Below, in pieces: positions 6,840 through 50,292 of a stretch of DNA of 64,000 nt. This DNA comes from Flaccisagitta enflata (lineage: Eukaryota). Positions within the stretch are counted from its first letter, which is position 1; every line of letters begins with the position of its first letter. The DNA is taken from NCBI GenBank assembly GCA_965153355.1, contig OZ231126.1, forward strand, positions 43,152,001-43,216,000. Direction: 5' to 3'. Position numbers and translations under genes: made by a program. Below the pieces are notes generated by a model. It searched no databases. It had not been told where the DNA came from and worked only from the letters and a program-made list of their open reading frames with translations.

Positions 6840-7215
6840 AAGCAGAATAAAATGCAAAAGCTAGCGTCATAAAACTCAGGGTTAATTTGTGTAATATCCA
6901 GACTCATCTGTATTGTTACATAGAGGCCGAAAAATAGGATCAATGAAAAATCTCGATTTTTGCAAAAATGCGAAAAAATATAAAAAGATTAAAAAATTCA
7001 TAGCGCCAAAACGAATGATCGTAGAGACTTCTGGTTGGCGCCATTTGAAAGAGAAAAATAAGCTCTTTCTTAGCCATGAATATCAAAAAATGTATCATCT
7101 CAGTCAGGAAATGGCTCAACTTCCTCAAGTGCCTCAAATCAAAAATGGAAAACCCGATTTTTCCCCTACGTTTCAAAAAGTCGAATTACGTAATTCGACT
7201 TTTTTCCAACCAATA
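6257..7215 (+). mobile_element. Unclassified dispersed repeat with an internal (CT)n tract, copy 1
   Basis: Shares both unique arms with 9703-10735 (accaataaaggcggct...ggaaaaaagtcgtaaatggg and aagctagcgtcataaaa...gtagagacttctggttggcgccatttgaaagag). Confidence 0.8.
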
Positions 7216-9672: not shown

Positions 9673-11014
<1,342 letters not shown>

Positions 11015-12098: not shown

Positions 12099-12164
<66 letters not shown>

Positions 12165-12911: not shown

Positions 12912-12974
<63 letters not shown>

Positions 12975-13253
12975 GACAGTCAGAGACTGAAAGAGATGCA
13001 CTGAGAAAACAAAGACACAGATGATTACGATGAGTGTTCTATATCACGTTGTTCCTAAAACTTATCCATGTTCGCTCCCTTGATATCCGTTATTGCAGGG
13101 TTCATATGTATTATCTAATTACGTTTAAGGAAATTGGAAAGTTTTGAAGAATATGAAACAAAGCAGCTTACCATGGAACTGAACTGAAGTATCAACAAAT
13201 TGTACCTCTTTTGGGGATGCGATAACCCACGACGCACGACGTGAGCGACTCTG

Positions 13254-13256
<3 letters not shown>

Positions 13257-13351
<95 letters not shown>
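13257..13351. repeat. (GCGT)n microsatellite
   Basis: Direct reading. Confidence 0.97.
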
Positions 13352-13615
13352 TTCTTGAGTGCTTGTGTGCGTGCTTTTGCGTTTGCGAGTGCGTCGTATA
13401 GATATAATGAATAATGAAGAAGAGAAAATTCGTAACTTTGAAGGTAGGCAACAAAAAAAGTGGAAGAAAATTGAAAGCGAGTTAAAAATGGAAACGGAAA
13501 AATGGGGAAACGAGTGACAAGAAGACGGGAGAAAAAAATCAACAAACAAAAACAAAAACACGAAGACGAAGAGAAAATTACAACAATGGAGAAGACGACG
13601 ACGACGACAACGACA

Positions 13616-13653
<38 letters not shown>

Positions 13654-13782
13654 AAAGACGACGACGACGAAGCAACCGAAGACAAAGACGACTAAGTAGA
13701 CGATTGCTCGAATGAATTCTCTCATTGGTATCTCAATATCGATGTTTACATTCTTAAATTTTGAAGGATAAGAATTTTAAAA

Positions 13783-24111: not shown

Positions 24112-24209
24112 GATGTCGCAACCCGTACGATACAAGCTGACCGCTGACCTTTTGTTCACAGATGTAAGGCAAAGCTGCGCTCGAGCTCTGACATTAGGGA
24201 AAAAAAAAC

Positions 24210-26267
24210 ATTGACCCTGACCTTCATCTTCAAGTTGAACCCTCAAGCTGCAACCTTCCTGCAACCTCGCCAAGTAGGAGTAAAGACGAGAGGGGGCACT
24301 GAGGCAATCATCCACTCTGTCCAAGCCATCCTCAACAACACCGCCATCCCTGCTAACAGCAAGTGGGTGGTGCAGATCGACTTCAAGAATGCCTTTAACA
24401 CCATCGATCGGACAACTTTCCTGGCCGAAGTTCGCGAGCGCCTGCCGGGCCTTTCAGCTTTTGCTGAGTGGTGCTACGGCGCTCACTCACGGCTTGTGTT
24501 TGGCGAAGACATTATCTACAGCGCCACCGGGGTCCAGCAAGGGGACCCACTAGGACCTCTGCTCTTTGCCATTTGCCTCCATCTCCTCATCCGCCGCATC
24601 GAAGAAGTCGCTCCCAACCTGCTCATCAACGTCTGGTACCTGGATGATGGCGTTCTTGTTGGCGATCCAAAGTCCATCTTGGCCGCCTTCGAAATCATCA
24701 AGGAGTTCTCTCCCACCCTCGGGCTGGAGCTCAACTTGGAGAAGTCCACCCTCTGGCGGTGCCTGGAGGCCCGTGCTGACCAGACCCAATCCACCATCGG
24801 CACTATCACCCAACTTGGCATCCCTGAGGTCCAATCCAATGGCTTCGTTCTCCTGGGGGCTCCAGTTGGAAGCGAAGCATTCTCTCGAGCTACGGTTGCA
24901 GAACGTGTGGAAAAGTTGGCAGATCTTTTGGCCAAGGTTTCGTCCCTTCAAAATCCTCAGATTCAGCTCTCTTTGGTCCGCTCCTGCTTTGGCCTAAGTT
25001 CGCCTACTGCCTTAGGACGTGTGATCCAGCCTCCGTCATTGATCAATTTGGTTCCTTCGACGATGCCCAGTGCCGTGCCCTCTCTGACATAGCCGGGACG
25101 CCGCTCTCAACTCAAGACCCAGCATGGATCTTGGCGTCTCTCCCTGTGTCTCTTGGGGGCCTTGGCCTGAGAAGTGCCGCCATTCACAGTCCAGCTGCCT
25201 TCGTCGCTTCCAACCTGCAAACATCCCACCTGGTGGAGAAGATAATTGCACCACACAAAACCCTCCGTGACATCACTGCTGCAACTTCCCTGCTCACCAA
25301 CAACTCAACAAACGCCACAACTCCTTTGCCCGAGGAAGGTCTAACAGCAAAGACTCCACAAAAGCTTCTCTCGCGTCGCATTGACGAATCCCGCCTCCAT
25401 CTTCTCGAAAACATGGACACTGGGGATCGATTTCCGATTGTTCTTCAATCAGTGCGTCAGCAGGGGACCGGAGCCTTTCTGAATGTCATTCCATCACCAA
25501 CTCTAGGCCTCTACATCCCTCCGCGCGAATTCACTCTGGCCACAAAATACCGTCTTGGGCTCCCGGTCTATCCAAGTCCTGGGCCCTGCCTACTCTGCCA
25601 GAAGGATTCTGACATCTATGGAGACCACGCCATCTCAGCGTGCATCGTCAGTGGTGATCGAACTCGACGCCATGACAGCCTAGTCAACGCCATCTATGAA
25701 CGATCTCAATCAGCACTACTGCGCCCCACAAAGGAGGAACGGAATCTTCTCGACGACCGTTCAAGGCCTGGCGACATCACGTTTGAACAATCGTGGCGGC
25801 TCTGCCCGGGGAAGATGAAGATTGCTTTAGACGTCACAGTTGCGTCTCCATTTCGTCAAGACTCTCACTCCCATTCCGCCGCGGACGCCACCTTCGTCTT
25901 ACGAAAAGCGCGGGAACACAAATTCCGCAAGTATGAAGACAAACTTCCTCTTGGCGTCGGCCTAGTCCCCCTCCCGGTCACCACCTTCGGTCTGTGGGAG
26001 GAAAATGCAGCCGCCAATCTCCTAGAAATTGTCAACATCCAGTCCAGCAACTTGCGTGGCGACAAAAAGAATAATAAAAGACACTTCTTTGAGCGTCTGT
26101 CCGTGACTTTACAACGTGAAAACGGCTCCATGCTGCTTGAGCGCTCTCCGCTCCCTGCACCAAATGTTGATGGTGAACTTTAAATTGTTATCTCGTCTTT
26201 CGTCTTCTGTGATTTCCATTTGTGCCTTCCTATACATTTATACCTTATCGTCTGATAAAAAAAAAAA
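24210..26267 (+). mobile_element. Non-LTR retrotransposon, RLE group (CRE-like), 5'-truncated
   Basis: RT motifs DFKNAFNTIDR, GVQQGDPLGPLLF and WYLDDG; LPVSLGGLG; CxxC...H...C knuckle followed by RHD, RPGD, ALDVTV and HKFRKY (RLE). Short 3' UTR with an A11 tail at 26257-26267; A10 at the 5' junction. Confidence 0.9.
24211..26183 (+). pseudogene. RT-RLE polyprotein broken by one frameshift near 24995
   Basis: The track's ORFs 24211-25092 and 25131-26183 join if the frame shifts at ggcct|aagttc, giving ...SCFG(L)-KFAYCLRTCDPASV...AWILASLPVSLGGLG. The N-terminus is absent. Confidence 0.85.
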
Positions 26268-26544
26268 TGCTGTTACTTTCTTATTTTGATGCAATGTCGC
26301 CTTTAACTGATTTTGCTTGCCATGTTCTCCCCTTTATTTCAGAAAAAAAAAAAAAATCTGTGCAGAGGTCTACATCTTTTCCATTATATGTTTCAACTGA
26401 AACAGTATTTATTGACGTAGACTTATGTTTAGTCATTCGTGCACTGCATTGATAATTGGAGACGGTGTAGAAGACGACCAAATCACGGCAACCCAGTCGG
26501 CATTGAATCAAACGAACGTACAGCCGTACAGGTAAACGTAAATA

Positions 26545-26928
26545 CACCTTTTTTTTATAAGAACATCATTTTTGGCCAAAATTTTCAAGAGAGATAGAGA
26601 TAGTTACTTATAGAATAACTACTATGTTCTTAATTTTAGAACAATATGAAGCCTTGATGTTCCTATAAACTAGGTTCTTACAAAAGAAAGCATTGTTCCA
26701 TTGCATGGCAATCATCTGGGACTAAGAGTTCCTGGGTGATTGCAACAGTTTACAACCGAACTGACAGCAACTACACTTTTTATTTTTTATAAAAACTTAG
26801 TCTATGAAATCATCAAGCCTTGAAATCACTCAAATATAAAGAACATTGTAGTTATTTTACTAGTAGCTATCTCTATCTTTTTTGAAACTTCAGAAAGGAA
26901 ATGACGTTCTTATAAAATATAAAAAGTG
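26545..26928. mobile_element. TA-flanked MITE (CAC...ATAAGAAC family)
   Basis: Ends cacc(t)nataagaac and gttcttataaaatataaaaagtg, TA on both sides. Same family as 48569-48992. Confidence 0.65.
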
Positions 26929-28163
26929 TATGTCACGAGTCTGAAAGATCTCGATCGATAGACTCGTTTTGCTTTTGCTATTTACAGAAAAACCAGGCCG
27001 GATACACGGCAATCCAGTCGCGGACGGTTGGGTAGGAGCAGTAATACGAAAACCACTTGGAATTCAGAAATGTGACGGACGGACCGACCGACACGGCAAG
27101 GTGTAGAGTCGCGTGTCCGCGACTAAAAACGTACGTAATGGTAAAGCTGTATGTCCGGTAATGGTAATGGTAAACGTACGTACGGGTTGGGTGCTTCACA
27201 TAGCACAAGTTGTTTATTTCTTTTCGCCCTCTCTACCTGATGTGGAGTGGCCAATTTTAGGACCCTTACCATTTTTTTCTTATCAAAAATCGTTCATCTT
27301 CCGTTTTCTAGAAAATAGGTTTTGAGGGCCTAATTTGCATAATGCAGTGGGATAAAGCAATATGCTGATATTGTTTGAATTAACTTTTACAAATTTCTAT
27401 TTTTCAAAGAATTGCAATTCTGCCTTTTCATAAGCTTTTTTATAGCTTATGTTCTAATATTTTATTCTATTTTTACAAGCATTATGTTTTTCTAAAATAA
27501 ATAATTGTCCTTTTTGTAACAAAACTACACAGGATTTTGCTGAATTCTGGGAAATCTGTGAAACTTTAAGGCCAAAACAAAAACGGAAGATGAAGGAATT
27601 TTGAAAAAAGGAAAATGGTCATCTTCATGATTTTTGCTCCTCCACATTACCTGAGTAGGGTGAAGGGATACTCCCAACTTTTGCTATGCGAAGCACGCAG
27701 CCGTACGGGTCTTCTTTTACAAGAGGATCTCACTTATATTTTCATCTATCATGACTATTTCTTCGCAGGAAATTTATGGACGTATAAGTATGGTTGAGTT
27801 TAGGGGTGGGGTTGAATTTAGGGGTAGGGTTGAGTTGAGGGGTAGGGTTGAGTTGAGGGGAAGGGCTGAGTTGAGGGGAAGGGTTGAGTTGAGGGGTAGG
27901 GTTGAGTTGAGGGGTAGGGTTGAGTTGAGGGGTAGGGTTGAGTTGAGGGGTAGGGTTGAGTTGAGGGGTAGGGTTGAGTTGAGGGGTAGGGTTGAGTTGA
28001 GGGGTAGGGTTGAGTTGAGTTGAGAAGTAGGGTTGAGTTGAGGGGTAGAGTTGAGTTGAGGGGTAGGGTTGAGTTGAGGGGTAGGGTTGAGTTGAGTTGA
28101 GGGGTAGGGTTGAGTTGAGTTGAGGGGTAGGGTTGAGTTTAGTTGAGGGATATGGTTGAGTTG

Positions 28164-28396
28164 AGTATGGAATAGGACTCCTTATACCCACTTGAAACAC
28201 CCTAATATTAGAATATCCTTTATAAGAATATGAGGGACCCCTATTTAATTTAGCAATTGACGTAATACACCACAAACTTTACAGATTTCTAATGCGGGTG
28301 ATATATAAACGAATATTTCTTTGGAATTTCAGTAAACCAAGAAATTCCAAAGAAATTTCGTCTTTCTTTCAGTCCGTATGACTTCAATGTCATACT
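28164..28396 (+). repeat. 5' LTR
   Basis: AGTATG...CATACT termini; no difference from 39596-39828 seen by eye. TATATAAA at 28302-28309. Confidence 0.97.
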
Positions 28397-28410
28397 TGGA
28401 GGCAGCGAGG
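28397..28410 (+). promoter_or_regulatory. Primer binding site (imperfect match to a tRNA-Leu-type 3' end)
   Basis: TGGAGGCAGCGAGG abuts the LTR and resembles the tRNA-Leu PBS TGGTGGCAGCGGTGG. Confidence 0.7.
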
Positions 28411-28620
28411 TCTAGTAAAATCTGCGCGCCACAAGTGGCTATTCGGTCAGTTGGGCAGGAGCACCGGCGGCGTTTCTAGGAAAAGGGATTCGACGCGGGT
28501 CTCTCCCAATACTCATCGATCATCGCGAAGCGGTATCGATCTACATTTAAACAGAAACATTATCGGCGGCTCTCGCCGTCAGAGGAAAAGCCGAGGTAGG
28601 ATCTTCGACTTTTTTCCAAG

Positions 28621-30960
28621 ATGTCAACCCCAGAGGAGATAAGTACGAATGAGCTTCTTCAAGAGATATCAGACTTGTCGGCTCGAATATCACAACTGAG
28701 ACCTGGTGTTTCAGCCACCATTTGGTGTCCAAAATGCTGGAGGCCTCCATCACAGCACAAAGGTGGGTCGATAAAAGGATGTAAATCAAAAACGAAAATG
28801 CCAGTTGATCAATTCACTCGTGAATTATTACAACAGAGGAATAACCTGGTAAAATGTATACGGTCTGCAGATACTGAAGGCAGACAGTCAGAGGCGATTG
28901 ATGCGCTACAAAATACAGTAGAGAGGCAGGCCCAGACCATCGAGTCAAATCAAGAAAGGATTAGAAGTCTTCAGGCAACTAAACAAGTCATGTTACACCT
29001 GATGCGCAATTTGAATGACGCCTATCTAGCATTTATTACAGGCGGGAATGAGAATAAGATGAAAAGGATTTTCAAAGATGTTGACGACTTATTGGTATCG
29101 CTTAACGCAGAATCAAAGTCTTCGAGTGAGAATGAAGATGATGATGATGGTGATGGTGAGGATGATGATGATGGGTGGGACCACACCGGGGATCGTACAA
29201 CATGGCCCATTGATAATGCAAGTATCATTGCAGATGGCAACAGATTGTTCCCGGCAGATAACAACGACGCGGGAGCGACGGAAGCAGGAGCAATAGGCGG
29301 CGTTGGAGCAACGAAGAAGGTACATTTCTCTTTCTCACCCGTCTTGACTCATTCGTCCAATTCGTCCAAGCGAAGCGCTGAGGCATCAGGTCAAACGACT
29401 GGAATATCAGGTCAAACGACTGGAACATCAGGTCAAACGACTGGAACATCAGGTCAGGCAGGAGTAGCATCCGCTCAAAGGATAGTGAATGGAATTTTGA
29501 GACCGGCGTCATCGAACAGGTCGGTGTACGATGTACAAGCCAATACACACACAATTTCCACCCCATCTCCCAGTACACACACAATTTCCACCCCATCTCC
29601 CAACCCACCCTCAACGCCGCAATATCCAGGGTTGTTTGAAAAACCAGGGGTGGTTCTCATATTTCCTAGAGGAGGAACTTTATGTGGGGGTGAAGCTGAC
29701 GCTGATAGCGTTGTTAGGGCAGCGAAAATTGTGAACGTTGATTTCAAGGAAAACATGGATGCATTATTGTACTTGGAACAAAGACGTAAGCTAGTTGATC
29801 AGTTGTCTTGCTATTTTGGCGCTTGCCCTATGTTCACTCATTTGGGGATATTTGCCTTGAAAGCTCATGTCTTCTATAAAACGTTTCAGCCTATCTTAAA
29901 GCGCGAGGCTACGTTTTCTAGCTTTATGGCATTCGTTAAGGAATTTGAGCATCAACTCTATCCTAATTTAGACTCGATTGCGTTGGGGAGACTACACAAC
30001 CGTAAACAACAAAACAATGAGTCGGTTTCAGAGTATTTCACAGATTATGCTGATTTGATATTCATCATTGGCAGACAAGAGGACGATTACATCCAACCTT
30101 TTTTGGCAGGATTATACAATAGAACATTGGCCCACACAGTGTCAAACGCGCAATATGAGGATGGGCAAAGAACATTGAGACGGCTTGCCAATCACGCTCA
30201 ACACATAGAGGCTCAGATAAGCCTCGATAAAGCATTCTTAGAGGGCAAGGATAACAAAAATAACCATCAACGCAACGTTTCGGCTTTAACCAACGCAGGT
30301 TCTCAACAAAGTTCGTCGGCTTCACATAGAGGAAGAGGCCACAATACGCAAACAAGAGGAGCACCGGCGCCACGAGGAGGAAGCGCTCCAGCCGGTAGAG
30401 GATGGTCAAATAGCGGCGCCGGTAGAGGATGGTCAAATAGCGGCGCCGGTAGAGGATGGTCAAATAGTGGCGCCGGTAGAGGTTGGTCGAATGGAAACGG
30501 CGGAGGAGGAAACTGGAGCAAGTACGCGCCAACTAGGAGTCAGAGTTTGCCACGAGGTGGTTACGCCGGAAGTGGCGCACGTGGAGGCGCCAACGCGTCG
30601 TCGGGAGCGTCGAGCGCGCAGGCGAGAGGAACGCAATCGTCATGGAAGGCGCACGTCAACGAAATTGGGGCGTCGATCTCGTCAGCGTCAGAGTCGGGGA
30701 TGACGCCGGAAGGTATCCTCCTGGCAATGAAGATGAAAAAGATGCAATTATCTGGATGTGCCGCTTGTTTAAGTAAGACGCATGTATGGAATGGATCATA
30801 TGAGTTTTGTCGGTCATTTTGTCCGTGTTGTGGCGTGGATTTGAGGAAAGAATGTCATATCGCCATAGAGTGTGAGGACAGACCGAAAGATAAATCTGAG
30901 GCCATCATCTTGGCCAGGGACGCTGACAGAAACGGAGACAAAGACAGATTGCAAGCATGA
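28621..30960 (+). CDS. gag: Gag (779 aa)
   Basis: First ORF after the PBS. Capsid-like QQNNESVSEYFTDY segment, RGG/RGW-rich region and C-terminal Cys/His knuckles (CAACLSKTH...C; CPCC...H...C). Confidence 0.88.
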   Translation: MSTPEEISTNELLQEISDLSARISQLRPGVSATIWCPKCWRPPSQHKGGSIKGCKSKTKMPVDQFTRELLQQRNNLVKCIRSADTEGRQSEAIDALQNTVERQAQTIESNQERIRSLQATKQVMLHLMRNLNDAYLAFITGGNENKMKRIFKDVDDLLVSLNAESKSSSENEDDDDGDGEDDDDGWDHTGDRTTWPIDNASIIADGNRLFPADNNDAGATEAGAIGGVGATKKVHFSFSPVLTHSSNSSKRSAEASGQTTGISGQTTGTSGQTTGTSGQAGVASAQRIVNGILRPASSNRSVYDVQANTHTISTPSPSTHTISTPSPNPPSTPQYPGLFEKPGVVLIFPRGGTLCGGEADADSVVRAAKIVNVDFKENMDALLYLEQRRKLVDQLSCYFGACPMFTHLGIFALKAHVFYKTFQPILKREATFSSFMAFVKEFEHQLYPNLDSIALGRLHNRKQQNNESVSEYFTDYADLIFIIGRQEDDYIQPFLAGLYNRTLAHTVSNAQYEDGQRTLRRLANHAQHIEAQISLDKAFLEGKDNKNNHQRNVSALTNAGSQQSSSASHRGRGHNTQTRGAPAPRGGSAPAGRGWSNSGAGRGWSNSGAGRGWSNSGAGRGWSNGNGGGGNWSKYAPTRSQSLPRGGYAGSGARGGANASSGASSAQARGTQSSWKAHVNEIGASISSASESGMTPEGILLAMKMKKMQLSGCAACLSKTHVWNGSYEFCRSFCPCCGVDLRKECHIAIECEDRPKDKSEAIILARDADRNGDKDRLQA

Positions 30961-30966
30961 CAATTA
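30958..30966 (+). promoter_or_regulatory. Stop-codon readthrough signal TGA-CAA-TTA
   Basis: The only stop between gag and pol is followed by CAATTA, matching the CARYYA leaky-stop hexamer. Confidence 0.8.
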
Positions 30967-33900
30967 CAGAAACCATTATCACAGAAAGAGGACGAGAAAA
31001 GTATTGGTGATAAATTACAATGTCTTTCAATATCAAAATCTCCGAATGAGTATGAGTTGAACATAGATTCAGTGGGACGTGTTTTAAATGGGCAAGAAAA
31101 GAAAGGCGACAATAGGAGTGGAAAAGAGGGTGACAGAAAAGGTGACAGTGAAAGTGACAGTGAGAGTGACAGTGAAAGTGACGGAGAAAATGACAAACAG
31201 TCATTGCATTGTGCTAACGTGAATAAAAAGGAATTTGAGGAAGAAGAGGAGGAAAATGGATGTTCAACGGGTTTTATGAAAGGAAGTAAATTCTATGTGG
31301 CATGTATGGTATCACCATGGGAGGAAGAGAGTGAAAATGGGAGTGATAATGGTCAAGATGGCGCGGTGAAAGGCGAATTTTTCATTGACACTGGAGCAGA
31401 GTGTAGTGTCATTGCCTCAGCTTTAGTAAAAGACATCAGAAAAAGGAAGGGTCCAGGAGTACAACTACTAGGTTTTACGGGCCAAGTAGGGGCGGAGGTG
31501 ACAGATATGGTGGATGTTACACTACATTTTTACCCACAAAGTGTGAGGTGTTCTTTCTATGTGTGCGATGTGGAGACATCAATTATAGGTTCTGACCTGC
31601 TTCGCGATAGGAGCCTGGGCCTCAACTTGAGCACGATGGATGAATTGTTGTATGTCAAAGATGAACGGATTTTGACATCGAGGTCGTTGGATGAAGCAGT
31701 TGATAGCCTGGTGGTAAGAAAGAGGGAGTGGGAAAGTCGTAGTTTAATGGAAAGGAATTGGCCAAAGGTTGAAAGAACTTACTGGATGTCAAACAGACGG
31801 ACTGTCACTCTTGATCCAACATCAATCACGATGGTCGAGTGCAAAATAGAGCCAAATTTTAGGACTGACAGTAAATTTTCATTTCTTTCGTTCTATGATG
31901 AGGAAATACATTCAGTCTACATACCCTCAGTCACGTATGAGAGAGGTACTGTAAATTTCATGATTCCAGTCACTAATCTTACCGGCGAGGAAATGACGAT
32001 TAAGGCAGGTTGGAGGATAGGTGAGATTGTGAAGCACGGTATCACCAAAGACGAACAAGAGACGCGTAGCTTGAAGATATTTCAAGTTGATGTCTGCAAA
32101 ATAGATGTGGTGATGAAAGGAACGAATGAGAAAAGCGAAAGTCAGACAGTTGAACGCGCGACAGTAAAGGAAAATAGTGAATACGACAATGTCAACACAA
32201 ACAACAAAAGGACAATCGTCAAAAACAACACTGGGTCCAAGAACAAAATAGTCGAGAACAACACTAACAACAAAAGAACAATCATCAAAAACAAAACAGA
32301 CGACAATGAAAAGTTAGTAGACAAACACATCAATGTCATCGCAAATGGTAACAACAAAATCGTCAATGTCATCGCAGATAGTAACAACAAAATCGGCAAT
32401 GTCATCAGTGATAATGACAACGGCATCGTCAATGTCATCGCTAATGATAAAAGGAACAAAACAGATGAAAGTTACGCAAAAAGAATAGTGTGTGAAGTGC
32501 TTGATATTCAGCCTCGCAAAAGTGTGATAGAAGGCTCACTTAAAGGTGCGGACAAAGTGAGAAAGGACAGAGAAAAAGCAGACACAAAAAGCAGCAAGCG
32601 CGAAAGAGGGGCGAGTGTTATTACGTCCATCGGAGAATCATATGATGAGAGAAAAAGGACTCGGACAGAGAGTGAGACGAATTTGGAACGGAGACAGAAG
32701 GCCTCGAAAAACGAAGTAGTAAAGAGAGAACGAAAATGGACTCAGGGCGCTGAGGAAGACAAACGCGAAAGGCTGGAAAGAGAAATGATAGGATTGATAT
32801 GCGGAGTGACGGACGAAGTCAAAAGTGGACGGACGGACGAAGGAGAGTTGTCAGCTGTCTGTAGAGACGGAGTAGGGTGCAACGATGTACGTGTGGAGGA
32901 GGTTGTGGTTGAAAAAGCTGCAGCGTCACACATACACAGCGAAGCGGCAGCAGGAGCTGGAAAGAAAAGCAGCTGCGGGAAGCAGCCAGGCGAAAAACGG
33001 AACGGCCTGCATGACGTCACAGGCCCCGTTCTTCTCTCTGATATAGTGAACAAAGGCAGACTTAGTAATGATCTGTTGAAGAGGTGTCAGGACACAGGAA
33101 TTTACTGTGATTTAGAGGCGAAGCAACAAAGTCCTAATCTCCATCTGTTGGGGGTCAGAGCAAACTTTGACCTTGAAAAGGACAAAAGAGCAAAATCAGA
33201 ATTTTGGCCATCAGATGAAATATTTCTAGCAAATTTTGATTTTTCAGGAGTAGAGGAGCCATATTTGAGCAAGTTGAAGGAGCTTTTAGTATGTTTCAAG
33301 GATATTTTTTACAATGTTGACAGGAAAGATCAGTTCAGAGCTGGCATTCAGAATATCCCATTGGTGCATATTGAGGTTCAACCAGGAGTGGTGCCAGTCA
33401 AGGATAAGCAGAGAAGATGTCCAGACAGTAAGAGGAAGTATTTGAAAAAGCATATTGAAGACCTTATTGACATGGGTGTTATTAAGGAAGTGGATAATTC
33501 CAGAGAATCTGCTTCTATCTATGCATCCAATGCTTTTATCATTTTGGAAGAAAGATGGTATAGTGGTGAGAACAAAATTAGGTACAAAAGTCGAATGGTA
33601 GTAGACCAAAAATCTCTCAACAAATCATTGAAAAAGAGTTCATTCCCTTTGCCAAATTGTGAGGCGTTCAGAAGAGAGCTGTCACAATATAAAGTGTTCT
33701 CAAGCTTTGACTTCGTAGAATTTTTTCATCAGGTCAAAACAGATGAGCAGACACAACAGCTATTTGGTATCTATGCTTTAGGCAAGGTTTACAAGTCTCT
33801 CAGATTATTGATGGGAAATATACAATCGGCCAACTTGGGGCAATTTACCTCATCAAAATGCTATGAAAATTGCCCTAGATCATATCCTTTTCAGGATGAT

Positions 33901-36900
33901 GTTTCATGCTGTTCAATGACCAAGGAAGAACATATAGAGAAGGATTTGCCTGACTTTTTGGCCACAACAAGTTACTACAATCTGCTTGTGAACCCGAAGA
34001 AGTGTATTTTCTTCAGAGATGAGGCCAGAATTCTAGGTCACTTAGTGGGAGAAGAGAGGCTGTCATTATCATCAGAAAAGATTGATAAGATCAAGAAATT
34101 GGCTTTCCCAGAAACAAAAGCTAAATTGAATGCAATGCTTGCATTTTTTGTCTGGTTTGACAGAATGGCAGTCAGACTGTCAGAATTGGCAGCACCTCTG
34201 AGAGAGCTAAACAAACCGGGTGTTCGTTTCAGGCCGTCAGCGATTCATCATAAGGCATTGCAGGACATAAAGGGGCATTTATTAGACCCAGAATGCTGTG
34301 TGTTAAGGACACCTAGTGCTGATGTGGAGGACACGATCTTTTGTTTTTGTGACGCCTCATCTAGCAGCCTGAGTGGGATACTGACACAGATGATGTTACC
34401 ACTGAAGCACAAGCAATCAGGAGAGCAGGGAAGAAAGGAATTGCATTTGGTGGGAGTATGGAGCTCATGCATACCCGAGAACTGGCGTTGTTACCCAATT
34501 TGGTTGAAGGAACTGGTCGCCCTTTGGCAAATGACGCATAAGTATTTTTTCCTACTTTCTGGCAGGCAATTTTTTGTTGTGAGTGACAGCGAGACTTGCA
34601 GGGATTGGGCAAGTATCGATCGAGTGCCAATGGATTTGGCAAGAAAAATCCTTTCTTTGCAACGGTTCGATTTCAAGGTCATTCATGTGGATGGGAAATT
34701 GAACATGGCAGATATCTTTAGCAGGCAGGAAAGGACATTTGACCCTCAAGGAAATAAGATATCACCAGTAGGGACCTATCCAAGGTTCATGGAAGGCCGT
34801 TTGATAAATGGAGATGGAAATCCAATAAGTTGGAAAAAACTCTTCACAGCACCAAAAAGCAAAAGAATGGAAGATTTCTTCGTTCGGAATAGAAAGCAGA
34901 AATTGGCGAAGGCAGTTTCAGTCGAGAAAAAAGAAAAGCCAATTCATGACGACTATGATTCCCGCAAAGACGCGGTTGACAGCCAAATAGAAGGGACAAT
35001 GGAGGTGGTGACAGACAATGACAAATCGACAAAAACAACACGTGAGTGTGTAAGAGAATTCACCTATGATAGAGTGATGGATTCCTTGAGAGCGGGTGAT
35101 GAAATTGATGACGTCAGTGGTGAGGGATTCGTCACCGACTTGCATGAGGGCGTCGTTGAGGACGATGGTGACGTCATTGAGGGCGACGACGACGTCGACG
35201 ACGACGTCGCATCGAAGGAAGCTTGCCGTCGAGGTGTCAAGGAGGAAGAGGAGGAGGAGAAGAAGGAGCTTGGGAGGATGAACATCTGTTCGTTCGGATT
35301 GACGGATGAGGAGATAGGAGAAGGATGGAATGATGCGGATGACGAAGAAGTGGAGGACATCTTTAGAGACGTGACCCTGCCCGTGTATGACGAAGACAAT
35401 CTGGAAAAGGCAAAGGAAATGCAAGAAGATGAAACAATTAGGAAGTGTGCTCAGTATTTGAGGGGCGAGGAGGAAATTCCCCGAAAAATAAATGCTTTGA
35501 GCCTGCCTAAGGATATACAGACGTTCTTACGACATAAGCTATGCTTTAGGCTGAATGAGCAGGGCATATTATTTCGCCTATGGACACATAAAAACGGTTC
35601 AATTGATCCTCTTTTGGTGGTTGGTGATTCACAAATGGACAGACTGATTGCTAAAACCCACGAATTTGATGTAGACTGCCCATCTGGTCTCTCACACATC
35701 GGTCAAAGAAAGACATTTACGGCAATCGCAAAAAAGTGGTACGCGTTCAGACTGAGATTCAAGGTGAACACATACATCTCACGGTGCGCAAGTTGCGCTT
35801 TGAATAACCACATAACAAACAGAGCAAGAAAAGAGGATGATGGAGAACAAATTGCATGTCAAAGCGGAGAATTGGTAGTTATGGACTTTGCGGGTCCATA
35901 TACAATGTTTAGAACAGCGTCAGGCTTGCCAAAATATGTCTTAATATTTTGTGACAGTTTCAGCCGTTACGCTTTTGGTACGCCAACCAATGGTACTAAT
36001 GATGACTATGTACTGGAGGGCGTAATGGAAATGAGAAAAGCGTGGAATGGATTGCCTAAATCTATAGTATGCGATAACGCATTACTATCAAAGCACAGTG
36101 CTACCAGGAAGTTTTTAATGGATAGTGGTGTAACTATTACCCATGGAATGGCGAACATTAGCAGGTGCCAAACAAAGGCCGAACGACTAATATCAACGAT
36201 TAGTCGTTTAATAATGAAGTATCACTCATCTAATCCAAAAACACCATTCTCAAAGTTGGTAAATGAATCTATCATTTGTTATAATAACTCGGTGCATAGT
36301 GGGCTAGGCCCTATGACCGAGGAAGGGGCGATTTCGCCACGGGAATTACACTTTTCACCTACCTTAAAGGCGCCGTTGATGAACATTGCGTCGAAAGAAG
36401 ATGGAAAAGGAAGCAAATCAGCAAAGGAGACAATTTCTTTGGCGAAAAGGGCGGCGGAAGAGTCTCTTCTGTACAACGTACAGTCGTTTCTGAAGAAAAA
36501 AGATCACAGTTCGCCAACTGATTATGGCCGTAGGCTTAAAAGTGGAGATCTTTGCTTGCTAAAAAGGACTTCATTCGCAAAAGGCATTCAGAAAAAGTTG
36601 GCATTCAAATTACAAAAAAATGCCTTTGAGGTCATGGACCGCGTCGGTACCAATACTTTTAGATGCAAAAGTATCTTGACAGATGATATCTGTATTCTGC
36701 CGGGTGACTTACTACTAATCACCAGAAACCAAACGAAGGAGGACTTACTAAGATTGTGTGAACGCATGGAAGAGATGGCCACAAAGAACGAAGCCTCGAA
36801 TTCGCCACCAATGACAAGAAGAAGGGCGCGTGGTGCCCAATTATCGCCGTCGATTGACGCCAATTTCGTCCTAAATGCGGGGCTGACGACGAAGAGCCAC

Positions 36901-36939
36901 TACGGTGGAATCGGCCTCGATGCGTTGGAATGGATTTGA
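30961..36939 (+). CDS. pol: Pol (protease, dUTPase-like fold, RT, RNase H, integrase), in frame with gag
   Basis: IDTGA (GAC 31387); RT FDFVEFFHQV and FQDD (33889-33900); RNase H CDAS (34351), KELVA, VSDS and ADIFSR; integrase H-H-CxxC with D 35884, D 36073 and E 36181 (D-x35-E). The frame is open from the codon after the gag stop. Confidence 0.95.
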   Translation, partial: QLQKPLSQKEDEKSIGDKLQCLSISKSPNEYELNIDSVGRVLNGQEKKGDNRSGKEGDRKGDSESDSESDSESDGENDKQSLHCANVNKKEFEEEEEENGCSTGFMKGSKFYVACMVSPWEEESENGSDNGQDGAVKGEFFIDTGAECSVIASALVKDIRKRKGPGVQLLGFTGQVGAEVTDMVDVTLHFYPQSVRCSFYVCDVETSIIGSDLLRDRSLGLNLSTMDELLYVKDERILTSRSLDEAVDSLVVRKREWESRSLMERNWPKVERTYWMSNRRTVTLDPTSITMVECKIEPNFRTDSKFSFLSFYDEEIHSVYIPSVTYERGTVNFMIPVTNLTGEEMTIKAGWRIGEIVKHGITKDEQETRSLKIFQVDVCKIDVVMKGTNEKSESQTVERATVKENSEYDNVNTNNKRTIVKNNTGSKNKIVENNTNNKRTIIKNKTDDNEKLVDKHINVIANGNNKIVNVIADSNNKIGNVISDNDNGIVNVIANDKRNKTDESYAKRIVCEVLDIQPRKSVIEGSLKGADKVRKDREKADTKSSKRERGASVITSIGESYDERKRTRTESETNLERRQKASKNEVVKRERKWTQGAEEDKRERLEREMIGLICGVTDEVKSGRTDEGELSAVCRDGVGCNDVRVEEVVVEKAAASHIHSEAAAGAGKKSSCGKQPGEKRNGLHDVTGPVLLSDIVNKGRLSNDLLKRCQDTGIYCDLEAKQQSPNLHLLGVRANFDLEKDKRAKSEFWPSDEIFLANFDFSGVEEPYLSKLKELLVCFKDIFYNVDRKDQFRAGIQNIPLVHIEVQPGVVPVKDKQRRCPDSKRKYLKKHIEDLIDMGVIKEVDNSRESASIYASNAFIILEERWYSGENKIRYKSRMVVDQKSLNKSLKKSSFPLPNCEAFRRELSQYKVFSSFDFVEFFHQVKTDEQTQQLFGIYALGKVYKSLRLLMGNIQSANLGQFTSSKCYENCPRSYPFQDDVSCCSMTKEEHIEKDLPDFLATTSYYNLLVNPKKCIFFRDEARILGHLVGEERLSLSSEKIDKIKKLAFPETKAKLNAMLAFFVWFDRMAVRLSELAAPLRELNKPGVRFRPSAIHHKALQDIKGHLLDPECCVLRTPSADVEDTIFCFCDASSSSLSGILTQMMLPLKHKQSGEQGRKELHLVGVWSSCIPENWRCYPIWLKELVALWQMTHKYFFLLSGRQFFVVSDSETCRDWASIDRVPMDLARKILSLQRFDFKVIHVDGKLNMADIFSRQERTFDPQGNKISPVGTYPRFMEGRLINGDGNPISWKKLFTAPKSKRMEDFFVRNRKQKLAKAVSVEKKEKPIHDDYDSRKDAVDSQIEGTMEVVTDNDKSTKTTRECVREFTYDRVMDSLRAGDEIDDVSGEGFVTDLHEGVVEDDGDVIEGDDDVDDDVASKEACRRGVKEEEEEEKKELGRMNICSFGLTDEEIGEGWNDADDEEVEDIFRDVTLPVYDEDNLEKAKEMQEDETIRKCAQYLRGEEEIPRKINALSLPKDIQTFLRHKLCFRLNEQGILFRLWTHKNGSIDPLLVVGDSQMDRLIAKTHEFDVDCPSGLSHIGQRKTFTAIAKKWYAFRLRFKVNTYISRCASCALNNHITNRARKEDDGEQIACQSGELVVMDFAGPYTMFRTASGLPKYVLIFCDSFSRYAFGTPTNGTNDDYVLEGVMEMRKAWNGLPKSIVCDNALLSKHSATRKFLMDSGVTITHGMANISRCQTKAERLISTISRLIMKYHSSNPKTPFSKLVNESIICYNNSVHSGLGPMTEEGAISPRELHFSPTLKAPLMNIASKEDGKGSKSAKETISLAKRAAEESLLYNVQSFLKKKDHSSPTDYGRRLKSGDLCLLKRTSFAKGIQKKLAFKLQKNAFEVMDRVGTNTFRCKSILTDDICILPGDLLLITRNQTKEDLLRLCERMEEMATKNEASNSPPMTRRRARGAQLSPSIDANFVLNAGLTTKSHYGGIGLDALEWI

Positions 36940-36946
36940 GACAGTA

Positions 36947-36982
36947 TTTTTTTTTTTTTTTGGTTTTTGTATTTTTTTTATT
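36947..36982 (-). terminator. Antisense poly(A) signal followed by an A15 tract
   Basis: Minus-strand AATAAA at 36982-36977, a 15-nt spacer, then A15 (plus-strand T at 36947-36961), about 110 nt downstream of the 143-aa ORF stop. Confidence 0.6.
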
Positions 36983-37092
36983 AGCAAAATTTTGGATAAA
37001 ATCAAGAAATGAAAGAAAGAAATAATTAGAAAAATTTTGAATTAAAAACCCTTAAGGGCAAAGTGGGGAAGAAAATCTAAGTGGGGAAAAAT

Positions 37093-37524
37093 TTAAACCC
37101 ACAGCGAACGGGCATTATTCTCATCGCAATGGCGGGGGGCCGGTCCTCGCATCTCGATGGTTTGGACTCGGGCTCTGGCACTGTCGGTGGCGTTCCTAAA
37201 CGGAACGCCGCTGACAGCTGGCGTGGCCATGGGGCTGGTGGAGGCGTCTTGGGCCTGATGAGGCCTCAGAAGGTCCAACGCAGCCCTTGGGACAGACTGC
37301 AGGGTGGCCAAGAAGCGGTCCACCGCTGCCAGTTTGCGCCTGAGGGCTACGAGGACCCCTGAGACCAGCATCAGGGCACCGATGACCCCTCCGACCGAGC
37401 CCCATGTCACCGCCTCAGAGTCCGGTTGGACGGACGCAACCGTTGGACTGGGAAGCGAGGTTGATGATTCTTCGTAAAAGTAATCATCAACCGAGCTTCC
37501 CGTGTAAAGGGTAAAGTTTGCCAT
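37093..37524 (-). CDS. Antisense small single-pass membrane protein (143 aa)
   Basis: caaaATGG start context; visibly GC-rich against AT-rich flanks. N-F-T sequon at residue 3, S/T/P stalk, TM at about residues 39-61 with two GxxxG motifs, followed by RRK. Confidence 0.75.
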   Translation of the reverse strand: MANFTLYTGSSVDDYFYEESSTSLPSPTVASVQPDSEAVTWGSVGGVIGALMLVSGVLVALRRKLAAVDRFLATLQSVPRAALDLLRPHQAQDASTSPMATPAVSGVPFRNATDSARARVQTIEMRGPAPRHCDENNARSLWV

Positions 37525-38576
37525 TTTGATTTTGAATAATGACTTTTGGAAACAAATTTAAATTAAATTCCCTCTAAATGTAAAAAGAAAGAAGAAACCG
37601 CCGTTCGCTGTTAGAAGAAAGAAGAGAAATGAAGTAAAAGAAAATGAATAAAAAGAAGATGTAATATAAAGCCGCTTCTTTTGAGACAGAAATACGAGCC
37701 TGTAAAAAGAGAAAATAGAACAATCAGTGTTTAATATTAGAGACGCTCTAATGATCAATGAATGTGAAATGTGAACGATGAATGAATGTGATAAATGAAC
37801 CTGGCCAGGTAAACGAACGAATGTTGACAGCTGATTGATGAATAGTGAACGAAGTGTGAACGGGGGAGTGAATGCGCGGTAGTAAATGAATCAAAGAAAC
37901 AAATGAACAATCAGCTCGAAGTTGATCAGAGAGGGCGTCTAATTTTAGAGTGATGGAAATAAGTGGCTAATGAAATTACGGAAGAGAAAAAGTGAAGAAA
38001 CGAAAAAGAATTTGCTAACCCCAGGGGGGCAAATTAAAGTAAGGTCTCGACAATGAATGTGAGCCTTTCGAAAACCGGTATTATTTAGGATAGTATGCCC
38101 CCGGCGCTATCTAGGGACGTGCCCGATTATCAATTCTTTAGTCTGAAGGATAAAGAATTTTCACTAAGCCCTTACCAGATGGTATTTGGGAGTGATTAAC
38201 AATGCGCAGACAGTACTGTAGTCGTATTTTTTTTTATGGAATTCCTATATTTTTTTTACGACATGAAGTCGATGATGGTTATATTTTTTTCTCGATTGAT
38301 GATTTAGTTCCCAAATGGAAAATCTTGAGAATAAAAACGAATTGAAAACGGCAGGAGTGAGGGAAAAATAATGAGTGACCAATGAAGTAAATTTGGCTAA
38401 ATCAGCTGCCAGCTTTGGACTTTGATCAAAGAAATGGAAAAAAGGGTCGGTGTGAAATTAAATTTGAAATTATTGATTTCTATCCTTTTCTCTCATGCTT
38501 AATTTCCCATTGTTTCACTACTCTGTATGGACTTTACCTTTTTTTTCCCGACTGTCGATTGACTGAGCATGCTGAT

Positions 38577-38889
38577 TTACACGTTTTGTATGGCATACTG
38601 ACTGTTTCGTCTTAGTGGTGTTGGAGTATTGGGAGCATTGCCTTGATTTGCTAGGATTTGCGTTGTTTGTAACTTTTGTTGAAAAATTTTGAATATGGTG
38701 AGAATAATATCGAGCAACACCAGGGCAATGGTGCCAAATTGAAGATATTCGACATCGTCAGTATTCTGTAATACTTTCTTTTTATACTCAGTTTTGAGAT
38801 ACTTCTCTGATACTGGTAAACATCGAGAAGTAGTGGTTCTTCCGGTAGCCGTACGATACACAATCAATTGACAAGCATCCCCGTCTTTC
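38577..38889 (-). CDS. Antisense spliced type I membrane protein (157 aa), exon 2
   Basis: Follows the acceptor ...ATTGATTTTAG|G; 313 nt, in frame with exon 1. Encodes KDGDACQLIVYR..., TM FGTIALVLLDIILTIF, and a tail ending AIQNV*. Confidence 0.8.
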
Positions 38890-39056
38890 CTAAAATCAAT
38901 GATTGACAGGCATGTTAACGATTAGAAATAGAAGTATTTGAATTCAATGCAAGCCTGAACTAATTAATATGTTACCATGGCGAAGAAGGTAATAATAACT
39001 TGAACTGACTTTTGCATTAATCTTGTGTTCAATAATTTTCTCCCCCCCCCACTTAC

Positions 39057-39217
39057 CTGTAGCCCACGCTTTCCAAATACCCCTCAAATTTTTGAAAACA
39101 CTTATTCGAGGGAACTGGATCTTTAACGTAATCCTCAAGTGTTTGCTCATTTGATTCAGAGGCCATTCCCATGGTGAAGAGAAGAGATGCCAACGCGAGA
39201 AAGAGATATTGGTTCAT
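39057..39217 (-). CDS. Antisense spliced type I membrane protein (157 aa), exon 1
   Basis: GCCATCATG start; signal-peptide-like MNQYLFLALASLLFTMGMAS; 161 nt ending CAG|GTAAGT. The 167-nt intron is 39056-38890. Confidence 0.8.
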
Positions 39218-39587
39218 GATGGCTTGTCGCAGTAGTCAAGCGGAGAAGTGATTAGGGAATAAAAGGAATTTTGGTAACCTAACAAATGCCGAGTCTTTTA
39301 TAGTTTCTTTGGATTAGAAGGGTTGTTGATTGATAATTTGAATATTTAGAATTCTCCTTTTCTGTCTTAGTTACTATCCAAACCTATAAGTCGTGACTTA
39401 TAAAAGTTAAAACGTGACCGTTATTTTCCGTTCATTCAAAGATTGTTATTGTTACGCAAACGCCCGCATTTCTGAGGTTTTTCATTTTTAGGTGGGTAAA
39501 AGGAGATCGACTTTGTTTTTAAATTCCGGGAATTTGAAAAAAAGAAAAAAAAAACCTAGTTCACACTAATGGTTTTTTTTTGTCAAC

Positions 39588-39595
39588 AGGGGGGA
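39588..39595 (+). promoter_or_regulatory. Polypurine tract
   Basis: AGGGGGGA immediately before the 3' LTR, preceded by a T-run. Confidence 0.8.
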
Positions 39596-39828
39596 AGTAT
39601 GGAATAGGACTCCTTATACCCACTTGAAACACCCTAATATTAGAATATCCTTTATAAGAATATGAGGGACCCCTATTTAATTTAGCAATTGACGTAATAC
39701 ACCACAAACTTTACAGATTTCTAATGCGGGTGATATATAAACGAATATTTCTTTGGAATTTCAGTAAACCAAGAAATTCCAAAGAAATTTCGTCTTTCTT
39801 TCAGTCCGTATGACTTCAATGTCATACT
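39596..39828 (+). repeat. 3' LTR
   Basis: Copy of 28164-28396. Confidence 0.97.
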
Positions 39829-41278
39829 GTTGAGTTGAGGGGTAGGGTTGAGTTAGGGGTAGGGATGAATTCAAGGGAAGGGTTGAGTTCAGGAGCTGGA
39901 TTGAGTTTTGGGGTAGGGGTGGGTGTAGGGGTAGGATGAGTTAAGGGGTAAGGATGAGTTTAGGGGCAGGGGTGATGTTAGGGGCAGGGGTGATTCTAGG
40001 GTAGGGGTGAGTTTGTGGGTAGGGGTGAGTTTAGGGGTAGGGGTGAGTAAAGGGGTAGGGGTGTGTTTATGGGTAGGGGTGTGTTTATGGGTAGGGGTGA
40101 TTTTAGGGGTAGGGGTGAGTTTAGGGGTAGGGGTGAGTTTAGGGGTAGGAGTGAATTTAGGGGTAGGGGTGAGTGTAGGGGTAGGGGTGAGTGTAGGGGC
40201 AGCGGTGAGTGTAGGGGCAGGGGTGAGTGTAGGGGTGAGTTTAGGTTGTGTCAAATAAAAAAACACTAAAGTGAGGTCCTCTTGTAAAAGTTTGCCTAAA
40301 TACGTCATGGTAAAGGTGTATGTCTGGCCGGCTCCTTCACGTAGACCCCCAAATTTATTCCAAATTCCTCAACCTGGACTCGAAGTTCCCCCCCCCCCCC
40401 CCCCCCCGGCTCAGTCCTGCCCCTTGTTCGTTTCAACTAAGGTTGCCTGTAGAATCCAGAGCGCCTGAGCCGCCTCATTCAGGGCTCGTAATCAATAGCC
40501 CCCCGGCTCCCTCCTATCGTCTCTGAGATTTGAATTTCATTGCTTTCTAGAAACAAAGTCATGTGTGAGTAGGCAAGGGCAGTGATAAAAAAAAGACTAC
40601 ACTTTTTATTTTAAGAAGAACCATGATTTTAAGAACATCAAGCCTTGAAATAGCTCAAAAATTAAGAACGTCAGTTTTTTTACTAGTAAATTTTTAAAAA
40701 AGTAACTAAAGCATATGAGCAGGAGCTCAGCACCGGAAAAAAAAAACACCAACATGCTTATAAAGCTATCAGAGACCCACCGACCGACATAGGGTGCACA
40801 CGCCCTAAGAAAAAATATCTATATTGATGGCTCGCCCTCCTAATCGCGTTGCGTGCTTTGCGACTCTACACCCCGCTTTGTCATCCGTCCTAGTCGGTGT
40901 GTCCGTCCGTCCATCACACTTGATACTTTTTTTATGTTTTTGCAGTTTTTGGCATCAACGCTCTAGCCTAAGATTGTGCTGAAGATAGTGACCTCAAACG
41001 TGGCCCCTGCCCAACCGCACGCAACTGGGATAGCCGTGTATCCGGTTTTGTCAGAGAGAGATAAGGTGAGTCAAGACAAGTTGTGTGTTCCCACTGTTTT
41101 AGTCGCGTGCTACGCGACTCTACACCCCGCTTTGTCCATCCATCGGTCGGTTGGTTGGTCGATCATATTTTACTTTTTTACGAGTTTTATTTTTAGTCGC
41201 GTGCACGTGACTCAACACCTTGGTTGGTCGGTTGGTCTGTCCGTCAGTTCGTCAGTAATACTTTAAAGTTTGAGAGAA

Positions 41279-41469
41279 TCAGAGTAAGAGAGAGAGTCAG
41301 AGTAAGAGAGAGAGTCAGAGTAAGAGAGAGAGTCAGAGTAAGAGAGAGAGAGTCAGAGTAAGAGAGAGAGTCAGAGTAAGAGAGAGAGAGTCAGAGTAAG
41401 AGAGAGAGTCAGAGTAAGAAGAGAGAGAGTCAGAGTAAGAGAGAGAGTCAGAGTAAGAGAGAGAGTCAG
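41279..41469. repeat. Minisatellite (AGAGTAAGAGAGAGAGTC)n, 18-20 bp units
   Basis: About ten visible units. Confidence 0.92.
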
Positions 41470-42419
41470 GGAGAAAATACATAAAAAACTCTTGGAATGA
41501 TTGTAAAATCTGCCTGTTTGTCAGAACAAGGCCGGATACACGGCTACCCCAGTCGCGTGCGGGTGGGCATGGGCCGTAATTGAGGTCACCAGATCATTTG
41601 GGCAGGAGCAGTGAGGCTAAAAATCCCAAAAACCCAAAAAAAGTAAAGTGTGACGGACCGACAGACAGACCGACGGATGGACGGACAGACCGACAAAGCG
41701 AGGTGTAGAGTCGCGTAGGACGCGACTAAAAACTTATGCAAATGTTCATAAAATGAGTTTGAGACCTGAAGTATCTTTCTTTTTCAAAGAATTGAACTTG
41801 AACTACAAAAAAAAAAAAAAGTCCGGATACACGGCAATCCAGTCGCGGACAGTTGGGCAGGAGCAGTAATGCGAAACCATTCGGAATTCAAAAATGTGAC
41901 CTACCGACTGACCGACACGGCAAGGTGTAAAGTCGCGTGTCCGCGACAAAAAATATATTCAATGTGCGGCAGCTACCGGAAGCTACCGGAATCCGCACCT
42001 TTGATCATCAACATTCTCAAATCCTCATTTCCAAAATTCCACAGAAGACAATTTCTCGTTCCCCCTCGGCCGCTGTCGCCATCCTGGATCCCATCGCCTC
42101 CGGCATCATCACAGACATGACGGCGTGTCTCGCCGAGGAAAAATCGGCGTTGGCCAGCGTTGTTGAAGAATCCGCGACAAGGTTTACGTCAATTATTAGA
42201 CTACAGACGACGCGTTACTCGTTTTTGACCCTCGATGGTGAAGTCTTAAGATAGCTCTTCATCGGTGACACTCCTGCCAGCGTCACAACGGGAACTGTAT
42301 CACCAAATGCGGTTGAAGCTTTCGTGGTGTCCAAAATGGGATGGATCCACATCCTCGCCGGTTTTACTTCAAATCATGCGCAAGGCCAGGTTTGCCCATA
42401 CATGCATGTGAACGCACAC

Positions 42420-42513
<94 letters not shown>

Positions 42514-50259: not shown

Positions 50260-50292
50260 NNNNNNNNNNNNNNNNNNNNNNNNNNNNNNNNN
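50260..50292. other. Assembly gap (33 N)
   Basis: Run of n. Confidence 0.99.

Follow-up and report, generated by a model that had tools for sequence, protein, structure and literature searches.

Antisense open reading frames (ORFs) in long terminal repeat (LTR) retrotransposons have been described mainly from plants, with products of nuclear or DNA-binding type. In Ty3/Gypsy elements of the Tat/Retand/Ogre type, such as Retand, maize Grande and rice RIRE2, additional ORFs lie in antisense between pol and the 3' LTR (PMC11963269). A TRP28 domain (PF04195) is present in 97% of the Retand-type clusters, other DNA-related domains also occur, and the Grande protein is nuclear (PMC11963269). Small membrane proteins that move env-less Gypsy elements between cells are a recent finding in insects, and have always been in sense orientation. 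The sORF2 of the env-less MDG1-group elements 412 and Stalker2 is 63-107 amino acids (aa) long, encoded in sense, and located upstream of gag or downstream of pol; candidates were selected for an N-myristoylation motif, and 105/105 are sense (PMC11952523). FAST proteins measure 80-200 aa, with an ectodomain of about 30 aa (PMC11952523). Here we describe an env-less Ty3/Gypsy-like element in 64,000 nucleotides (nt) of Flaccisagitta enflata DNA (assembly GCA_965153355.1, contig OZ231126.1, positions 43,152,001 to 43,216,000 of the forward strand; this whole stretch is called the window, and its own numbering is used throughout). The region between pol and the 3' LTR of this element is 2.65 kb long, and its minus strand (36947-39595) holds two ORFs, ORF-A (157 aa) and ORF-B (143 aa), both predicted to encode membrane proteins.

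The element belongs among the LTR retrotransposons with additional antisense ORFs. It resembles plant Retand/Tat elements in the long stretch that separates pol from the 3' LTR (2.65 kb, against 2.9-6.6 kb in the plants), its antisense ORFs and its lack of a sense env (PMC11963269). The plant antisense ORFs are family-wide (PMC11963269); here, the two-ORF cassette is high-copy in a DNA sequencing run (run X2), and the ORFs are found on many contigs. Unlike in Retand/Tat, neither TRP28 nor any other Pfam family is found in the cassette, both products are small single-pass membrane proteins, and one of them has a predicted intron.

Measured against the features listed for FAST and sORF2 proteins in PMC11952523, ORF-B would be bitopic with an N-out/C-in orientation as judged by charge, with a short ectodomain and no signal peptide; a membrane-adjacent basic patch and an amphipathic tail helix are present in 21/21 family members. 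In contrast to sORF2, the myristoylation motif MGxxxS/T occurs in 0/21 members, and the ORF-B proteins are 131-147 aa long, antisense, and equipped with a conserved N-glycosylation sequon. The second, type I protein ORF-A has no counterpart in the sORF2 elements, and the likeness drawn here is one of layout. Because defining features of both are absent, the element stands outside the Retand and the sORF2 groups.

Other parallels are looser. The HTLV-1 protein HBZ is a retroviral antisense product (PMC11963269), and HIV-1 ASP has been characterised as hydrophobic and plasma-membrane-associated; in both, as in the present cassette, a reverse-transcribing element has a minus-strand protein gene close to its 3' LTR. 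These genes, however, either have their start in the 3' LTR or share sequence with sense genes, in env-bearing complex vertebrate retroviruses, whereas here two non-overlapping genes occupy a dedicated region of an env-less element, and the candidate TATA box is internal, outside the LTR. The Vesta and Juno elements of bdelloid rotifers have an ORF3 of 220-230 aa with two transmembrane (TM) regions and cysteines (PMC5408684). As here, a Gypsy-like element carries a third ORF for a short protein with TM and Cys in place of a canonical Env, but the accessible part of that report names antisense for small RNAs only and mentions no intron (PMC5408684). Errantivirus-type Gypsy elements differ in that a sense env ORF follows pol, ahead of the 3' LTR.

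We found no description of antisense, intron-bearing genes for small membrane proteins in an LTR retrotransposon in the open-access full text searched. A conserved, high-copy family with two such antisense genes, one of them spliced, would unite the themes of plant antisense ORFs and insect small membrane proteins. The first-pass annotation of this DNA had proposed that the pair may replace Env. This idea has more precedent than was assumed there, as small TM proteins that take the place of Env in env-less Gypsy elements have already been published in the form of sORF2, always in sense orientation (PMC11952523); what does stay unusual is the antisense, intron-bearing layout.

Anatomy of the antisense cassette

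The Ty3/Gypsy-like element is full-length, env-less and young, and its family is high-copy. On balance, we think it somewhat more likely than not that ORF-A and ORF-B are two genuine antisense accessory genes of the element, kept as proteins by purifying selection. Both ORFs have diverged full-length relatives, and are therefore more than chance frames. The features of the region are as follows.

39297-39302, minus strand: TATAAA, candidate promoter element 80 nt before the start codon of ORF-A
39057-39217, minus strand: ORF-A exon 1, codons 1-53 plus 2 nt; ATG at 39217; signal-peptide-like MNQYLFLALASLLFTMGMA
38890-39056, minus strand: predicted ORF-A intron, 167 nt; CAG/GTAAGT...TTTTAG/G, canonical GT..AG
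38577-38889, minus strand: ORF-A exon 2, codons 54-157 plus stop; two Cys; tail ending in RRNSQYAIQNV
37525-38261, minus strand: ATG-free stretch upstream of ORF-B, 737 nt
37093-37524, minus strand: ORF-B, 143 aa; TM at about residues 43-61; C-terminal WV
36947-36982, minus strand: AATAAA (36982-36977) followed by a run of 15 A (A15, 36961-36947); candidate signal and site for polyadenylation of antisense transcripts, a few bases off the pol stop

Much of what the first-pass annotation had read from this region was borne out. Sense env is indeed absent between pol and the polypurine tract (PPT), the longest sense stop-to-stop frame in 36940-39595 being 93 codons. The antisense anatomy is also as it had been described, with a predicted two-exon ORF-A of 157 aa, a 143-aa ORF-B with a single TM, and AATAAA plus A15 at the end, and both ORFs are intact in this copy.

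ORF-A is predicted to be a type I membrane protein with a signal-peptide-like N-terminus (judged by eye from its hydrophobic residues), an ectodomain of about 85 aa with cysteines, and one TM at about residues 105-123 of the 157-aa product. Exon 2 contains no in-frame ATG, so that an upstream exon is needed. ORF-B consists of an acidic N-terminal segment of 42 aa with an N-x-T sequon, the TM, an RRK patch with an amphipathic helix, and a tail with NATDS..IEMR. We predict it to be bitopic with a Gly-rich TM, and its N-out/C-in topology is taken from the distribution of charge.

No ATG occurs on the minus strand from 39435 to 39217, that is, through the candidate TATA box down to the start of ORF-A. 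The spacer between the two ORFs had been called ATG-free with splice acceptors. This holds for the roughly 740 nt upstream of ORF-B, which include three strong pyrimidine-rich YAG acceptor-like sites (37700, 37608 and 37574; 50-176 nt upstream of the ORF-B ATG), but not for the part that follows the ORF-A stop, where there are four minus-strand ATGs at 38570, 38510, 38496 and 38264. The ATG-free stretch is the longest such run on the minus strand of the window. None of 3000 mononucleotide shuffles matched it (0/3000; shuffle mean 9.5 ATGs), and ATG is the sole trinucleotide of the 64 to be absent from this leader (first-order expectation 5.0), while CAT occurs 26 times. Elsewhere in the window there are other ATG-free runs of 600-1400 nt, and because this repeat-rich window has such runs, ATG depletion in the ORF-B leader is suggestive, not proof.

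We considered by hand whether the ORF-A exon-1 donor could be spliced to the leader acceptors to give a signal-peptide-ORF-B fusion, and rejected it: 37608 is out of frame, and the frames from 37700 and 37574 hit an in-frame stop just upstream of the ORF-B ATG. A scan for sigma-70 promoters and terminators was disregarded, the host being eukaryotic.

In the arrangement that we propose, an internal promoter (TATAAA at 39302) would drive convergent transcription of ORF-A and ORF-B, against the direction of gag-pol, ORF-B may be reached through a second start or alternative splicing behind its ATG-free leader of about 740 nt, and antisense transcripts would end at AATAAA/A15 beside the pol stop. 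An intron or a poly(A) signal persists in a retroelement only if it goes unrecognised on the genomic RNA. Lying in antisense, both the intron and the poly(A) signal would thus be carried unharmed through the sense genomic RNA and, if this is correct, the element would be a natural case in which antisense placement keeps an intron in a retroelement. We infer the promoter, splicing and polyadenylation of the antisense unit from these sequence signals together with the pattern of conservation.

Conservation, copy number and constraint

A word-indexed protein search with ORF-B gave 17 matches among 294 candidates. Fifteen of the 17 are collinear with the query, 134-144 aa long and 51-94% identical; of the other two, one is truncated to 108 aa, and the N-terminus of the second is unrelated. 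A profile of ORF-B run against 1.84 billion representatives returned 11 matches, including six further clusters of 131-147 aa with 28-38% identity. All of these relatives are unnamed proteins, from ENA contigs and one JGI contig. The architecture is shared by 21/21 members examined: the N-terminal 36-45 aa are acidic (net charge -4 to -7) and include an N-x-S/T sequon within residues 1-10; a single TM comes next, then two to four basic residues in the 10 positions after it (of RRK, RRN or RAK type) and an amphipathic helix right after the basic patch (hydrophobic moment 0.47-0.63), and the C-terminus is made of an aromatic or polar residue plus V, I or L. A tail motif resembling N-[AL]-[TS]-D..[IL]EMR is present in 20/21. 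Retention of length and motifs at 28% identity indicates that ORF-B is not a drifting frame.

For ORF-A exon 2, four candidates yielded relatives in three clusters (96, 98 and 61% identity), and an alignment of 16 sequences separated two subfamilies that are 60-64% identical. Four blocks are invariant in both subfamilies (TTSRCLP, NTDD.EYL, LDIIL and RRNSQYAIQ); the Asp of LDIIL, which lies within the predicted TM, is invariant in 16/16 aligned sequences, as is RRNSQYAIQ. Speculatively, the intramembrane Asp and the RRNSQYAIQ tail hint at assembly with a partner and at regulated trafficking. The database proteins are prokaryote-style gene calls on genomic contigs, and their frames include the last part of the intron. 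The two subfamilies differ ahead of an R-K-D-G motif (SIIDF vs LTLLH), and from R-K-D-G onward they are conserved; the Arg codon of this motif spans the acceptor AG/G. Similarity that starts at the acceptor, in an exon lacking an in-frame ATG, fits an exon boundary at the predicted place. Neither gag nor pol nor the unspliced ORF of exon 1 had an identical entry in the protein collection.

The first-pass annotation had proposed comparing other copies of the family, and both ORFs proved to be kept as proteins in many copies and in diverged subfamilies. The ORF-B protein of the window was found letter for letter on 3 ENA contigs, and its 90%-identity cluster comprises 15 distinct variants, all of 143 aa, on 57 contigs in all. 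Run X2, searched as Logan contigs, covered 30/30 bins of 35500-39828 at a summed word depth of 560-13,700; depth was 620-10,300 over the cassette and 560-5,600 over pol, and the LTR was deepest. Since its depth falls in the range of pol, the cassette is high-copy and not a one-off insertion. Linkage of the cassette with gag-pol in sister elements is suggested by this depth. Segments of the stretch were found in 20 runs from 10 studies, mainly marine metagenomes.

We compared copies at least 92% alike from run X2, a small and pre-filtered sample. All 12 of the listed insertions and deletions (indels) in 36947-39595 avoid the exons (906 exon bases, 34% of the region; chance about 0.007), and sit in the leader/spacer, the intron and the upstream region. 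Of the 40 substitutions listed, 8 are located in exons, and 7/8 of these are synonymous when taken singly. The predicted ORF-A intron has 4 listed substitutions and 1 indel in its 167 nt. These signs of constraint at the nucleotide level are in line with what the proteins show.

The same copies differ with a strong asymmetry between strands. Over 35500-39828, read on the plus strand and without polarity, there are 26 G>A and 14 A>G differences vs 4 C>T and 3 T>C, and 4/17 of the listed G>A sites are at CpG. Errors or deamination during reverse transcription of the plus-sense genome could produce this asymmetry.

Possible roles and competing explanations

Several results weigh against, or lend no support to, two genuine, selected antisense genes. 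A raw poly(A) RNA run (X24), from the organism behind run X2, gave 0 reads on the stretch, with 6% of the run sampled and the presence of that organism in the sample unconfirmed, and so is no test of expression. Two metatranscriptome runs (X12 and X15) gave 5 and 4 short contigs on the stretch at a depth of 3-5; these runs were chosen for containing words of this stretch, and their coverage cannot be ranked. Their contigs cover the spacer and the intron unspliced and are strandless, so that sense genomic RNA or DNA could be their source; the contig at 38911-39234 passes without a break from the ORF-A intron into exon 1, and no joint matching the predicted ORF-A intron was present among the metatranscriptome contigs. 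No family or fold match supports any function in Pfam, PDB profiles or the ESM Atlas: Pfam scans of ORF-B, of each ORF-A exon and of three relatives matched no family (E up to 0.01 or 1), and PDB profile searches with the cassette proteins gave no informative match. In the ESM Atlas, the feature clusters nearest to ORF-B (opalin, TMEM154, SMAGP and UL132) did not reach the 0.9 mark. AlphaFold2 models were poor (mean confidence, pLDDT, of 52 for ORF-B and 58 for ORF-A exon 2), with confidence in the TM helices only; the ORF-B model contains one helix, 41-89, at low confidence. With regard to linkage, no contig shared by ORF-B, ORF-A and pol-fragment proteins was recognised among those listed, and no sister-element DNA was recovered with an ORF-B profile against JGI metagenome contigs or with ORF-B and pol C-terminus profiles against viral contigs. 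With regard to constraint, the substitution list comprises 40 of 99 differences, and within-subfamily polymorphisms do not shun deeply conserved columns (2/26 vs 11/117, p = 1). Lastly, ORF-B is a GC island (60% GC, 66% at third codon positions; 24% in the 3' untranslated region, 36% in the spacer, 43-47% in gag and pol) and ends in AATAAA plus a templated A-run, a finding that a captured host mRNA would fit, and its distant relatives could be host genes.

These last points bear on the main rival, passive transduction, in which the element took up one ORF or both from the host, as genes or as a retro-copied mRNA, and amplified them without being served by them, the ORFs being intact since the copies are young; the cassette would then be an ordinary transduction amplified by a successful element. 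We regard this as unlikely. A base composition of ORF-B sharply unlike that of the rest of the element, the resemblance of AATAAA and the genomic A15 to a retro-copied poly(A) tail, identical LTRs that mark a young copy, and remote ORF-B relatives that come without context would all be expected of passengers. However, transduced ORFs are usually present in one or a few copies (PMC11963269), and the cassette is high-copy. ORF-B falls into several multi-member subfamilies with 51-94% identity and conserved length, no listed indel falls in an exon, and most of the substitutions listed there are synonymous. ORF-A moreover keeps its predicted intron, and is thus not a processed copy.

As for what two selected accessory genes would do, it is possible, though on the doubtful side, that both proteins are membrane-acting helpers for spread between cells or for changing the host surface. 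ORF-B would act in the manner of the small membrane proteins of the FAST/sORF2 class, and neither protein would be a classical Env. If so, the cassette would be a new candidate for envelope-independent spread or host-surface manipulation. Superinfection exclusion, and regulation of the element by antisense RNA, had also been suggested in the first-pass annotation; both are conjectural.

A stronger version, in which the ORF pair, or ORF-B alone as a FAST/sORF2-like fusogen, replaces Env and mediates envelope-independent transfer of capsids from cell to cell, seems to us quite improbable. In its favour are the lack of a sense env, an ORF-B layout that matches the FAST/sORF2 features given in PMC11952523 (its 131-147 aa lie within the 80-200 aa of FAST proteins), and the retention of this architecture down to 28% identity. 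Against it stand the missing MGxxxS/T motif (0/21), an ectodomain of 36-45 aa and not about 30, the sense orientation of all 105 sORF2-like candidates (PMC11952523), and the generic nature of the shared features, a layout that is common among small cellular type III membrane proteins, as the ESM Atlas neighbours below the 0.9 mark illustrate. More conjectural still, and improbable to a somewhat greater degree, is the full scenario of an old env-less Gypsy-like lineage of marine eukaryotes that has long kept, with ORF-B members down to 28% identity, a convergent, intron-bearing module of two genes, a FAST/sORF2-like remodeller and its type I partner, as a new device for envelope-independent transmission or host-surface change, with the antisense placement itself adaptive in shielding the intron and the poly(A) signal.

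We consider it very unlikely that the region stems from some other element inserted here in the opposite orientation, or from an assembly chimera, as might be suspected from the uneven run X2 depth within the cassette (620 to 10,300) and from the T- and A-runs that bound the region. An unrelated insertion with its own target-site duplication (TSD) had been named in the first-pass annotation as an outcome that would undo its proposal, and neither terminal repeats of a nested element nor a TSD bounds the region; there are only the low-complexity T- and A-runs. The PPT and an identical 3' LTR directly adjoin the region, the same minisatellite lies on both outer flanks of the element, the cassette depth is within the range of pol, and differences between cassette copies show the same plus-strand G/A asymmetry as 35500-39828 overall. 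That the ORFs are chance frames, with only a non-coding antisense RNA or nothing functional, is barely credible and already largely refuted by the ORF-A and ORF-B relatives, since the missing family, fold and RNA support is set against full-length relatives with conserved motifs down to 28% identity and exons that are free of listed indels and mostly synonymous in their listed substitutions.

The element and its insertion site

The window contains a single full-length Ty3/Gypsy-like LTR retrotransposon on the plus strand (28164-39828), with the following features.

28164-28396, plus strand: 5' LTR, 233 bp, 233/233 identical to the 3' LTR; ends GTATG...CATAC
28397-28412, plus strand: primer-binding-site-like TGGAGGCAGCGAGGTC (starts TGG), abutting the 5' LTR; read from the sequence
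28621-30960, plus strand: gag, 779 aa; weak Retrotrans_gag match (E 6.6e-4), under the Pfam cut-off
30958-30966, plus strand: gag stop TGA, then CAATTA; pol is open in the gag frame directly after TGA
30961-36939, plus strand: pol, 1992 codons stop-to-stop; 1887 aa counting from the first ATG at 31276
39589-39597, plus strand: PPT GGGGGGAAG, a purine tract at the 3' LTR border
39596-39828, plus strand: 3' LTR, 233 bp, identical to the 5' LTR
27721-28168 and 39828-40268, no strand: 18-nt minisatellite on both outer flanks of the element

The Pfam order in pol is RVP (34-116), RVT_1 (771-922), RT_RNaseH (1016-1131), Integrase_H2C2 (1473-1512) and rve (1531-1623), with the rve, Integrase_H2C2 and RVP matches each under the Pfam cut-off. 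The nearest solved structures are Ty3 Gag-Pol (7q5b, E 5.9e-24) and, next, Ty3 reverse transcriptase (4ol8). Domain order and nearest relatives agree, and support a Gypsy-type element. The earlier reading of the locus as a Gypsy-type element with identical LTRs was correct in both respects (LTRs 233/233, Ty3-like pol), and the full identity of the LTRs points to a young copy. CARYYA is a motif for stop-codon read-through (PMC4132726). The CAATTA after the gag stop fits it, and with pol in the gag frame this suggests that Gag-Pol is made by read-through, not by frameshifting. The pol ORF is unusually long (1887-1992 aa), and 32142-32438 and 35064-35360 are Asn/Ile-rich repetitive and acidic low-complexity stretches between its catalytic domains.

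The same minisatellite on both flanks fits a single event that placed the element in a satellite array. Either flank of the element has GTTG(AGTTG), but the length of the TSD is ambiguous, because the target itself is the 18-nt repeat and the match may come from this repeat. No further copies of the element were found in the window by blastn or tblastn, and an Rfam scan of 26000-42500 gave no match.

Outside the minisatellite, a 91-nt direct repeat (85% identical) lies on either side of the element, at 27050-27140 and 41874-41964, and is probably another dispersed repeat family. The window is repeat-rich, with no clear host gene recognised, and has an assembly gap of 33 N at 50260-50292. A separate reverse transcriptase fragment lies upstream of the element at 24148-25092 (RVT_1, E 4.5e-18).

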